From assembly GCA_040753955.1 (NCBI GenBank), contig JBFMDQ010000005.1, forward strand, positions 1-61,848: a stretch of DNA of 61,848 bases, written 5' to 3'. Positions 12,786 through 38,176 of the stretch are shown here, in pieces. Within the stretch, counting starts at the first letter, position 1. Each line of letters begins with the position of its first letter. The DNA is from Nitrospirota bacterium (lineage in GTDB: Bacteria; Nitrospirota; Thermodesulfovibrionia; Thermodesulfovibrionales; SM23-35). Made by a program: the position numbers and the translations under genes. Under the pieces are notes generated by a model. The model made no database searches, had not been told where the DNA came from, and was given only the letters and a program-made list of their open reading frames with translations.

Positions 12786-12818
12786 CCCCGTTAGAAAACC
12801 CCACCCTTTCTAACGGGG
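12786..12818. repeat. CCCCGTTAGAAA/TTTCTAACGGGG palindrome supplying the alr stop codon
   Basis: 12-bp perfect arms 12786-12797/12807-12818; same family as 37030-37118. Confidence 0.85.
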
Positions 12819-35459: not shown

Positions 35460-36650
35460 TTAATTTTCTGACCTTTTCCTCACCCCAAAACCCTTCCCCC
35501 TCAGGTCTGAGAGAATTTCCTCTAAATGTTTCTTGTTCCGTATCTCAACCATGAAAACAACTCTCGCCTTGCCTACCGGGAGGTCTCCTGCAAATCTATC
35601 GTGAACAACATCAAGGATATTCCCCCTGTGGGAAGCAATGACACCTGTCAGAGAGTGAAGGCTTCCGGGGATATCATCAACAGTTACTTCAAAAACCCCT
35701 ATCCTCCCAGTTTTTACAAGACCTTTGTGAATTATCCTGTCAACGAGTGTAAAATCTATATTGCCACCGCTGACAATAAGGACAATTCTCTTTCCAATAA
35801 ACTTCTCTCTGTTTTCTAATAGGGCTGCAAGGGGAACAGCCCCGGCACCTTCAACCACAAGTTTCTTCCTTTCCATGAAAAGGAGTATTGCCATGGCAAT
35901 GGAGTCTTCTCTCACTAAAATTATGTCATCCACATATTTATTCATAATCTCAAATGCTTTTTCTCCGATCATGCCAATCGCTATCCCATCGGCAAGAGTG
36001 GGCAATGGGGGCTTATCATAGATCTTTTTCTCCCTGAATGAAACATAGGCAGAAGTAGCGGACTCTGTCTGAACTCCAATTATCTGAGTCTTCGGCGACA
36101 AGGCCTTTACTGCAATTGAAATCCCGGATACAAGACCACCTCCTCCTACGGGGACGAATATAATGTCCACATCTCTTAAATCCTCAATTATCTCTACACC
36201 AATAGTCCCCTGACCAGCAATCACCTCTTCATCATCGAAGGCATGTATGAAAATATAATCCTCCTGGGAAAGGGCATAATCCAGTGCTTCTTTAAAACTA
36301 TCTCCATAAAGTACAACCTCTGCGCCGTAGCTCTTTGTAGCCTCTTCTTTTACAATAGGGGCTGTCACGGGCATAGCTATCTTTGCATGTATCCCGATTC
36401 TTCTTGCAGCGAAAGCAATTGCCTGCGCATGATTGCCCATAGATGCAGCTATTACTTTACCTCTGATATGAATCATCTTATTGAAGGCACCCCTGACCTT
36501 GAATGAGCCTGTCTTCTGAAGGTTTTCTGCCTTCAGATAGACCTCAGCCCCTGTCATCTTACTGAAGGAGTTGGAATAGATTAATGGAGTCTTATGGACA
36601 TGATCCCTTATATTTTCTGCTGCATTCTGGATGTCATTTATCTCTAACAC
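35460..36650 (-). CDS. ilvA: Threonine ammonia-lyase with C-terminal ACT domain
   Basis: KAENLQKTGSFKVRGA, SMGNHAQ, VPVGGGGL and SGGNID motifs. Confidence 0.93.
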   Translation of the reverse strand: MLEINDIQNAAENIRDHVHKTPLIYSNSFSKMTGAEVYLKAENLQKTGSFKVRGAFNKMIHIRGKVIAASMGNHAQAIAFAARRIGIHAKIAMPVTAPIVKEEATKSYGAEVVLYGDSFKEALDYALSQEDYIFIHAFDDEEVIAGQGTIGVEIIEDLRDVDIIFVPVGGGGLVSGISIAVKALSPKTQIIGVQTESATSAYVSFREKKIYDKPPLPTLADGIAIGMIGEKAFEIMNKYVDDIILVREDSIAMAILLFMERKKLVVEGAGAVPLAALLENREKFIGKRIVLIVSGGNIDFTLVDRIIHKGLVKTGRIGVFEVTVDDIPGSLHSLTGVIASHRGNILDVVHDRFAGDLPVGKARVVFMVEIRNKKHLEEILSDLRGKGFGVRKRSEN

Positions 36651-36890
36651 CTGCTTTTCCCCTTCTTTTTATCTTTCCTTTGATTATCATAATCGGACAC
36701 ACCATTATACCAAATCCTGTTTCTATGGATTCATGCAAATATATTTTGGGTCTCCCAAGCCTAATTCGAGGCAAGATGCCTCGACTATTTTCTAAAAGAG
36801 ATTTGGCTATTTTTGATATTCTGTGAAAATAGATCAGACACCTTGCCTGATTGAAAAATCCCTCTCTTTTCCGTTTTGAATTTTTAGGTT

Positions 36891-37158
36891 ATGATTAAAA
36901 ATACATTGCTTGAAGACCCTAATGAAGAAGAAGTGGTTAAAAAGCAGAAAGAAACCAAAATGCTCTCCAAAGAGGCATATACCACAATATGCACAAATGT
37001 AGAATGTAGGTTGAGGAGGGCAGGCTGTAGACCCCGTTGGAATTGCACACGGGGCATTGGGCTATGTGCAAAAGCGGAAGATTTTTTAATTTACCCCGGA
37101 GGAATGAATTCTAACGGGTAAAGGCTTTGAAGGCTGTCCTGGCTATGAGGGGAGGTAA
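36891..37158 (+). pseudogene. Small Cys-rich protein gene interrupted by a MITE
   Basis: Deleting 91 bp (37029-37119) restores ...ICTNVECRLRRAGCKGFEGCPGYEGR* ending at 37158. Confidence 0.7.
37030..37118. mobile_element. 89-bp MITE with a TA target duplication
   Basis: CCCGTTGGAATT / AATTCTAACGGG arms (11/12 match); TA at 37028-37029 and 37119-37120. Confidence 0.75.
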
Positions 37159-37185
37159 GGATAATTTTATAAAAGAGGATTACAG

Positions 37186-37788
37186 GTGTCCAAAATAGAC
37201 GAATTAAAAAGAAGCCTGCTGTATTCTGAAGAACTGAGAATTGAGTTAAAGAAAAATAATGACGATGAACTTTTTAAATGGTTTTTAGCGAGTATCCTCT
37301 TTGGGGCAAGAATATCTGAAACAATTGCAAAAAATACATACAAAGCCTTCGAAAAATATAATCTCCTGGAGCCGCAAAAGATATTAGAGGCGGGCTGGGA
37401 TTTCTTGGTAGATCCAATTATGAGAGAAGGAGGGTACGTCCGCTACGATTTTAAAACATCCACAAAGATCTTGAAAATTTGCGAAACCTTTATAAAGGAA
37501 TATGATGGGAGTTTGAAAAAACTGCATAACGAATCTAAAGATAAAAATGACTTGGAAAACAGATTACTGGATTTTTACGGCATCGGTCCTGTAACAATGA
37601 ATATTTTTCTGAGGGAATTAAGACCCTATTGGGAGAAGGCAGACCCAGAACCCTTGCCAATAGTCAGAAAAATAGCCCAGAAACTTGGAATAGCTTTAAA
37701 TAAGTACGGCAGGAAAAGCCCTACCTTCACAAGGATTGAGGCGGGATTGATAAGATTAAGAAGAAGTGATTTAGCTTATCCCTGCTGA
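37186..37788 (+). CDS. HhH-GPD superfamily protein (DNA glycosylase-like)
   Basis: GIGPVTMNIFLREL HhH motif; FKWFLASILFGARI and GGYVRYD; GAGG RBS before GTG. Confidence 0.75.
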   Translation: MSKIDELKRSLLYSEELRIELKKNNDDELFKWFLASILFGARISETIAKNTYKAFEKYNLLEPQKILEAGWDFLVDPIMREGGYVRYDFKTSTKILKICETFIKEYDGSLKKLHNESKDKNDLENRLLDFYGIGPVTMNIFLRELRPYWEKADPEPLPIVRKIAQKLGIALNKYGRKSPTFTRIEAGLIRLRRSDLAYPC

Positions 37789-38029: not shown

Positions 38030-38176
38030 TAATACAAACGCATTAAATGCCTTTACATCGTCATTGCGAGCGACCAACGGGAGCGTGGCAATCTCACTTT
38101 ATAAGTAGGAGATTGCTTCGTCGCCCGCCTTTGGCGGACTCCTCGCAATGACACTTTACTTAATGCGTTTGTATTA
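38030..38176. mobile_element. 147-bp MITE with perfect 17-bp TIRs and nested REP units
   Basis: TAATACAAACGCATTAA 38030-38046 / TTAATGCGTTTGTATTA 38160-38176; inner GTCATTGCGAG/CTCGCAATGAC and GCAATCTC/GAGATTGC. Confidence 0.8.

Follow-up and report, generated by a model that had tools for sequence, protein, structure and literature searches.

What interrupts a small four-cysteine gene in this Nitrospirota genome, and which enzyme is likely to have moved the interrupting DNA there? The window, i.e. the whole stretch of 61,848 nt that was analysed, is contig C5 of genome G000, an assembly of 1.69 Mb in 80 contigs with 42% GC, which database names group with groundwater Nitrospirota. A genome of the same genus (G001), with C92 as the counterpart contig, was used as the empty-site reference. 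The ORF that begins at 36891 reads MIKNTLLEDPNEEEVVKKQKETKMLSKEAYTTICTNVECRLRRAGC and then runs through 30 codons of foreign sequence to a stop at 37119-37121, resulting in a 76-aa frame (36891-37121) whose stop is now supplied by the TAA of the right duplication copy (Table 1). Joining the flanks with the element removed restores TGT AAA GGC and a 58-aa peptide with the end ...AGCKGFEGCPGYEGR. At the counterpart locus, G001 aligns on both flanks without window positions 37030-37117 and has the uninterrupted ...GCAGGTTGTAAAGGT... in a 55-aa ORF (MRSVKTLMKEKEVKKREEKKALSKKVHITICTNVECRLRKAGCKGFEGCPGYKGR), with the same 200-aa gene downstream. The net insertion is 91 nt, consisting of the 87-nt element and a 4-nt duplication. 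An earlier interpretation of this DNA from its letters alone (hereafter the sequence-only reading) had taken out 37030-37118 together with one TA; this restores the same codons and removes the same 91 nt, but the element boundaries are now placed at 37032-37118. With a single same-genus empty-site genome available, the difference might also be read as a deletion in G001 or a mis-assembly of G000. We give this reading almost no weight, since more than 20 genomes from across the order, as well as 75 protein clusters, show the gene without interruption, and the extra DNA is a member of a dispersed repeat, bounded by family ends and a 4-nt duplication.

The interrupted frame is evidently a genuine coding gene under strong constraint, because 11 columns of the homologue alignment are invariant (four Cys, L, R, F, E, G, P, and G) and synonymous changes are in excess: the 26-codon domain shows 12 synonymous and 2 non-synonymous changes between G000 and G001 (pS 0.73, pN 0.033). 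The parts of the domain before and after the insertion point each contribute 6 synonymous changes and 1 non-synonymous change. In the stranded 3' remnant, the 12 codons differ from G001 by 6 synonymous and 1 non-synonymous changes, and thus purifying selection acted on the remnant until recently. As the remnant is still undecayed and the insertion is absent from same-genus G001, the insertion is young. Uninterrupted homologues of the joined-flank peptide (E<1e-5) are present in at least 22 of the 41 genomes of the family and order, and the same search of the genomes revealed no second copy of the gene in G000. Furthermore, 26 database proteins of 47-92 aa match this peptide, and approximately 75 representative clusters among 1.84 billion proteins carry the small-protein domain, nearly always at the extreme C-terminus. 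In G000, the 5' part of the gene encodes a variable Lys-rich N-terminus followed by ICTNVECRLRRAGC, and the conserved C-terminus of the homologues has the form CxxxxC-x6-C-x5-C...FEGCPG. The empty site and intact ORF in G001, together with these homologues, bear out the proposal of the sequence-only reading that an insertion splits a tiny four-Cys gene, and the invariance of all four cysteines agrees with its description as a C-x4-C-x6-C-x5-C mini protein. Its expectation that annotation would miss the protein holds in part: the 26 database matches are all called, as 'hypothetical', in NCBI and JGI records, but no Pfam or NCBIfam family matches the small protein above threshold.

The insertion has most likely inactivated the gene, as the protein loses its fourth native Cys and the FEGCPGYKG motif. 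The disrupted ORF retains the C-x4-C-x6-C-x5-C spacing (window 37026-37046) because the element end encodes RPRWNC. This retention is probably due to chance, and the truncated protein might still bind metal.

The function of the intact protein has to be approached through its sequence relatives. Comparison with PDB sequences gave chance matches only, and the AlphaFold2 model, with a pLDDT of 57, is too poor for use. Neither the joined-flank peptides nor the disrupted ORF have an exact record in a collection of 15 billion proteins. Among the loci compared, no conserved gene neighbour was found: an ilvA-like PALP gene lies next to the small gene in close relatives and purL or PhoH elsewhere, and there is no radical-SAM or other maturase gene in these neighbourhoods. 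In three representative clusters (P0043, P0066, and P0025), the four-Cys domain forms a C-terminal extension of RsmG (GidB), with P0043 matching GidB at E=3.7e-40. RsmG is a 16S rRNA methyltransferase. This fusion and the Lys/Arg-rich tail suggest that the small protein may be a ribosome- or RNA-associated putative zinc (metal) knuckle, and metal binding by the four-Cys protein is plausible. The RsmG-fused domain is encoded upstream of parA-parB (P0025, P0043, P0066; locus L077:28-306). A strongly conserved small protein with four invariant C-terminal cysteines, belonging to no named family, is brought to light at this locus.

Table 1. Coordinates of the disrupted locus, of family elements in G000, and of gene-bearing units with the same ends. 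Positions without a contig refer to the window.
Feature	Location	Strand	Description
Small four-Cys gene, 5' part	36891..37028	+	Codons 1-46 (Met to Cys46); aligns with the G001 55-aa ORF and 23 database homologues
Left target-duplication copy	37028..37031		TAGA, one mismatch to right copy; supported by the one TAAA present in G001, which lacks the element, and by family-wide 4-nt repeats
Non-autonomous element (MITE), 87 nt	37032..37118	+	Ends CCCCGTTGGAAT... and ...ATTCTAACGGG; inverted repeat; absent from G001
Left module	37032..37093	+	5' 58 nt of ~105-nt parent MITE plus its internal TTTA (37090-37093)
Right module	37094..37118	+	25-nt mini-hairpin CCCCGGAGGAATGAATTCTAACGGG; supplies the right end of the chimera
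Right target-duplication copy	37119..37122		TAAA
Small gene, stranded 3' remnant	37120..37158	+	KGFEGCPGYEGR plus stop; frame differs from that of the disrupted ORF
Downstream 200-aa gene	37186..37788	+	Weakly endonuclease III / HhH-GPD-like; 95-100% identity to G001; outside the element
Family mini-hairpin, 33 nt	12786..12818		Flanks TTTA and TTCA; site also occupied in G001
Element empty in G001	C8:49492-49592		TTCA
Element empty in G001	C34:11925-11969		TAGA
Element empty in G001	C46:8141-8362		TTTA; 222-nt sister-family element with CCCTGTTGTTGCA ends
Element empty in G001	C1:145449-145479		TAAA
GIY-YIG unit, empty in G001	G000 C36:12035-12275	-	241 nt (strand given is that of the nuclease ORF); ends CCCCGTTAGAC and GTCTAACGGGG; duplication TTCA (TTCA in G000, CTCA in G001)
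GIY-YIG unit	G020 C5 (L200:1501-1768)		268 nt; nuclease gene at C5:35023-35295; TTTA/TTTA; PF01541 E=1.1e-12, no other domain
GIY-YIG unit	G003 C55		307 nt; exact CCCCGTTAGAA ends; flanks CAAA/CAAA; frameshifted
GIY-YIG unit	G021 C60		412 nt; TTCA/TTCA; mini-hairpin nested in frame in the nuclease gene
Sister-family copies in G000	C46:3844-10745, C1:65891-66112, C14:32498-32719, C18:8882-9103		

The element itself has no coding capacity, and the sole ORF through it is read-through from the host gene. A 12-nt inverted repeat (CCCGTTGGAATT / AATTCTAACGGG, 92% complementary) is located at 37033-37044 and 37107-37118. The Rfam search over 36600-37400 returned nothing, and the element folded as single-stranded DNA is unremarkable (z=-1.6). 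There are no other copies of the 87-mer in G000, but its two parts have separate relatives. The left module is homologous by alignment to a parent type of approximately 105 nt up to ...CTTAATTTA; elements of this type occur in G020 (at least 7 copies), G021, G012, and G001 with TAAA, TTAA, or TAAG flanks, and also in a Thermodesulfobacteriota genome. Two of the G020 copies (L030, L031) contain a nested 23-nt mini-element at the same internal TTTA, with TTTA on both sides. The right module is 93% identical to 26-nt elements at C10:10936-10961 and C9:17437-17462 of G000, and the last ~40 nt of the parent are missing from the window element, which stops at the mini-hairpin. Judging from these alignments, the window element is a chimera that combines the left end of a parent MITE with the right end of a nested mini-hairpin. 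In the simplest history, a ~105-nt parent MITE would first have acquired the mini-hairpin at its internal TTTA, and the stretch from the left end of the parent to the right end of the mini-hairpin would then have moved as a unit. Given this chimeric make-up, only the two ends of ~11-13 nt appear to be necessary for movement.

The two duplication copies in the window differ at one base (TAGA vs. TAAA), and similar mismatches are found elsewhere (C34, TAAA/TAGA; C1, TTTA/TAAA). Such mismatches reflect either later mutation or the carry-over of donor flanks. As a consequence, the ancestral residue 47 in G000 may have been K or R, both of which occur among the homologues.

The window element belongs to a large repeat family. 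Approximately 70 elements of 26 to 290 nt in G000 are ended by CCCCGTTAGAA and TTCTAACGGGG; in the window alone, CCCCGTTAGAA occurs 6 times with at most one mismatch (0.84 expected), and ACCCCGTTRGAA has 68 occurrences in G000 compared to 1 for the reversed control. The family member that had been reported at 12786 was found as a 33-nt mini-hairpin. Exact 4-nt direct repeats flank 35 of the 64 unambiguous pairs of ends; when the partners are shuffled, 12.7 pairs on average and never more than 23 do so. These exact repeats comprise 17 TTTA/TTTA and 14 TAAA/TAAA pairs, the others being TTCA, TAAG, and TTAA. Other exact repeat lengths are rare among the 64 pairs (1 nt, 5 pairs; 2 nt, 1 pair; 3 nt and 5-8 nt, none), and only 2 pairs combine TTTA with TAAA, as would be expected of an extended inverted repeat. 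Instead, the flanks co-vary (TAAA, TTTA, TAAG, TAGA, TTAA, and TTCA).

One chimeric query assembled from the flanks of 16 elements was searched in G001 and the matches were aligned. Five further G000 sites are empty in G001, each with one tetranucleotide and a length difference equal to the element plus 4 nt, and six tested sites are occupied in both genomes. All six occupied/empty comparisons, including the window, thus agree in length with a 4-bp duplication. The duplication made by this family is 4 bp, usually TAAA or TTTA. The mobility claimed for the CCCCGTTAGAA family is confirmed by the empty site at the window and the five additional occupied/empty pairs.

The sequence-only reading had described a MITE with a TA duplication derived from IS630. 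The MITE designation is upheld by the inverted repeats, small size, lack of genes, multiple copies, and empty site, but the duplication is 4 bp rather than TA, as the other copies of the family show. An IS630/Tc1-type MITE, duplicating TA and moved by an IS630-family DDE transposase, would account for the TA shared by the flanks of the window copy (37028-29 and 37119-20), and the TA duplication of a separate MITE 900 nt downstream (38032-38174) indicates that a TA-duplicating activity existed in the lineage. Nevertheless, this origin is highly improbable for the window element: exact 2-nt repeats are found in 1 of 64 pairs vs. 35 of 64 for 4-nt repeats, flank positions 3 and 4 co-vary (TAAG/TAAG, TAGA/TAGA, TTCA/TTCA, and TTAA/TTAA), the empty site of C1:145449 would be 2 nt longer than seen if TA were duplicated, and the search for an IS630 transposase returned no PF13358 (DDE_3) match in G000. 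We rejected the derivation from IS630 on the basis of the 4-nt duplication, the absence of a DDE_3 gene from G000, and the GIY-YIG genes of relatives with the same ends. The window element resembles IS630-derived MITEs in that its inverted-repeat ends are short and its AT-rich target includes a TA, but differs from them in its 4-nt rather than 2-nt duplication and in the lack of an IS630-type transposase in G000. For annotation, the lesson is that a TA at a single copy is insufficient to assign a MITE to IS630.

A sister MITE family of 222 nt, with CCCTGTTGTTGCA ends, has ~9 copies in G000 and also shows 4-nt duplications (TAAA, TTTA, and TTAA). Each of its copies contains a nested CCCTGTTAGAA mini-hairpin, and on C46 copies form two inverted pairs, with 2.5-3 kb of ordinary genes between the partners. 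At C38:4326-4378 of G000, a family mini-hairpin is situated in the loop of an NTS/dRS3-like palindrome (gtcattcccgcttg...caagcgggaatg).

The pairing of CCCGTTAG-ended palindromic elements with units that carry only a GIY-YIG gene was tested, and such units were found in G000 and its relatives (G003, G020, and G021). These gene-bearing units with family ends are 241-412 nt long and contain only a gene for a GIY-YIG nuclease of ~80-90 aa. The C36 unit of G000 is spanned end to end by an open frame of 82 residues on the minus strand (PF01541, E=1.3e-13, no other domain), and the element at C8:49492-49592 is an internal-deletion derivative of this type. The C36 nuclease is about 10 residues shorter in the segment from HNNG to LIYFE and shows no obvious start codon internally, so this copy may be inactive. 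The nuclease ORFs of C36 and of the G020 unit end in ...LTG, with the stop codon (TGA or TAA) coming from the flanking duplication, and a GTG within the terminal repeat is the likely start in the G020 unit. The nearest solved structure to the GIY-YIG protein is that of the UPF0213/YhbQ-type protein BH0048 (1ZG2). Among 41 relatives, a close GIY-YIG homologue (E<=1e-14) is present in 6 of the 11 genomes with at least five termini vs. 2 of the 30 genomes with fewer (Fisher p=0.002); however, the assemblies of two genomes that rank at or near the top in termini, G001 (89 termini) and G013 (54 termini), contain no close GIY-YIG unit. A second, intact GIY-YIG gene of ~90 aa (PF01541, E=1.9e-19) was observed at C10:42033-42278 of G000, flanked by a different hairpin (GCCCTGNATG...CATTCAGGGC) in an Ssn-like repeat-gene-repeat layout.

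The ends of this family are not restricted to the relatives of G000. The 15-mer TAAACCCCGTTAGAA was sought across 185,579 species genomes, and 80 loci were sampled among the matches listed. In approximately 65 of these 80, an inverted copy follows or precedes at a distance of 24-300 nt, and the pair is flanked by TAAA or TTTA, identical on both sides. The chance expectation for the 15-mer in this number of genomes is about a thousand occurrences, but not with such a partner and flanks. Omnitrophota, Desulfobacterota, Planctomycetota, CPR groups, Gammaproteobacteria, and others are represented among the matches listed, showing that this hairpin-ended repeat family occurs in many uncultured phyla.

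The mobilising enzyme is most likely the GIY-YIG nuclease, and not a DDE transposase of the IS630 or another family, as no other gene was found between these ends in G000 or its relatives. The gene could, however, be cargo, and a hidden DDE transposase, e.g. of the IS1380 family, would then move both the MITEs and the GIY-YIG cassettes with the nuclease gene as a passenger. IS1380 elements are prokaryotic relatives of piggyBac and have been used as its outgroup (PMC10813416). The family ends resemble those of IS1380/piggyBac elements in beginning with CC(C), and the AT-rich 4-nt duplications, TTAA included, are also similar. IS1380-like elements of the relatives likewise have ends starting with CCC and AT-rich 4-nt duplications (L044/L045, TIR CCCAGATAATTCAT with CTAG/CTAA flanks; L046/L051, TIR CCCAAATCCAGCG with AT-rich 3-5-nt flanks), and IS copies are often lost from MAGs. 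Still, we consider a hidden transposase of this kind unlikely: PF13701 is absent from the MITE-rich genomes G000, G020, G003, and G012 and was not found between family ends, CCCYGTT ends occur at none of the 12 IS1380-like loci, inverted end pairs 0.3-4 kb apart in G000 are pairs of separate MITEs with none around a transposase, and no transposase lies beside unpaired ends at 18 loci from other phyla. All-against-all BLAST of G000 revealed no IS-sized, near-identical multi-copy repeat (>=300 nt), and no transposase starts at the ends of its contigs. IS1380 was rejected as the mover, since its transposases are present in the relatives but have other end sequences. Three of these IS1380-like elements, L044/L045 (G005, G002) and L051 (G001 C107), have CCCAGATAATTCATAAAT ends with CTAG/CTAA flanks and are likely the parent IS of the cccagattattcat MITEs in G000, as their ends match.

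A further possibility is that the elements are hairpins of the REP/REPIN kind and owe their movement to a Y1 (HUH) transposase related to RAYT or IS200/IS605; the tetranucleotide would then be a cleavage motif instead of a duplication. G000 encodes five Y1_Tnp proteins of ~320 aa, the elements form hairpins, and the near-constant flank (TAAA or TTTA) is reminiscent of guide-specified cleavage sites. The hairpin repeats also resemble REP/REPIN sequences with RAYT in occurring in dozens of copies that sometimes bracket one small gene. We regard this explanation as very unlikely, because the Y1 genes of G000 are flanked by GGGTCAAACCT inverted repeats and not by family ends, the family flanks are co-varying direct repeats, and a single copy of the tetranucleotide is present at each empty site. 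Neither Y1 elements nor REPs duplicate their target, unlike the family described here.

The closest published system is that of the Ssn nucleases with their SRM hairpin repeats. Ssn proteins are single-domain GIY-YIG nucleases with site-specific activity on single-stranded DNA, which they cut beside hairpin repeats of their own, termed NTS/SRM (Chenal et al., Nat Commun 2025, PMC11893778). The ssn genes are often bracketed by NTS/SRM repeats, and the authors liken the NTS-ssnA-NTS layout to an insertion sequence, although neither target duplication nor transposition was reported for Ssn/SRM (PMC11893778). The present system also combines a single-domain GIY-YIG gene of ~90 aa with a hairpin repeat on both sides and many gene-less copies. 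In contrast to Ssn, its ends are CCCCGTTAGAA as opposed to NTS CGTCATTCCCGCG...GCGGGAATC (compared by eye with the quoted NTS consensus), and it has bounded inverted repeats, a 4-nt duplication, and occupied/empty polymorphism that includes a gene-bearing unit.

Classical bacterial MITEs, including Correia/NEMIS, RUP, Nezha, and the Rickettsia palindromic elements, are similarly small and gene-less, with terminal inverted repeats and target duplications, and likewise are multi-copy, form nested copies, and land inside genes. Such families either are associated with DDE insertion sequences (with TA duplicated in the IS630 type) or have no known driver (PMC10969869). The family described here differs from them in its 4-nt duplication, in having GIY-YIG nucleases encoded by its only gene-bearing relatives, in functional units as small as 23-33 nt, and in the identical ends found in many phyla. 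A full-text literature search found no bacterial description pairing GIY-YIG with MITEs.

Taken together, we consider it probable that the window contains a chimeric 87-nt MITE of a hairpin family that recently inserted at a TAAA/TAGA target in a conserved gene, with a GIY-YIG nuclease acting in trans as the likely driver. The protein encoded before the insertion would have consisted of a Lys-rich tail followed by the invariant C-x4-C-x6-C-x5-C with FEGCPG. An element with CCCCGTTRGAA ends would have inserted at TAAA (or TAGA) across codons 46-47 of this ~58-aa gene, adding 91 nt and leading the frame through 30 element codons into the TAA of the right duplication. The nuclease would make a 4-nt staggered cut at T-rich, TWWA-like targets. 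Characterised GIY-YIG enzymes, however, are not known for integration with a 4-nt stagger. The locus provides a natural record of recent hairpin-repeat movement, in which occupied and empty sites can be compared and both the 4-nt duplication and the chimeric make-up of the element are preserved. The gene-bearing form is itself polymorphic, as only one of the two species has it.

More tentatively, a GIY-YIG protein of ~85 aa may be all that is encoded by an autonomous DNA transposon of 240-310 bp with TWWA-like targets, a 4-nt duplication, and ends of ~11 nt, which would have carried identical ends into many bacterial phyla and of which Neisseria Ssn/SRM would be a domesticated or sister system; we see this as possible, but would not presume it. 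If true, it would represent a class of mobile elements that is independent of DDE, HUH, serine, and tyrosine enzymes and mobilises even mini-hairpins of 23-33 nt and chimeras such as the window 87-mer. With the record of movement described here, the resemblance of NTS-ssnA-NTS to an IS that was remarked on for Ssn becomes a testable claim, namely that a tiny GIY-YIG nuclease may be a transposase.

Several other differences from G001 were observed around the locus. A second insertion in G000 (window 38030-38176) contains a 143-nt element at 38032-38174, whose 15-nt inverted ends (ATACAAACGCATTAA and TTAATGCGTTTGTAT) match perfectly and whose duplication is a genuine TA; in G001, the empty site is ttattagcttt. 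This element carries the palindrome 'cattgcgagc...gcaatctc', which is common in these MAGs. Identity to G001 changes sharply at 37160-37185, from 70-80% in the small gene and upstream to 95-100% downstream, and pS is 0.73 in the small-gene domain vs. 0.074 in the neighbouring gene. Gene content upstream is different as well, with an ilvA-like PALP gene in G000 and asparaginase_2/CinA in G001. These changes have the appearance of a recombination breakpoint next to the small gene. Finally, another dispersed repeat is located between ilvA and the small gene (window 36756-36855), which matches many loci in G020, G003, G013, and G000 (C2:5262, C10:28459).
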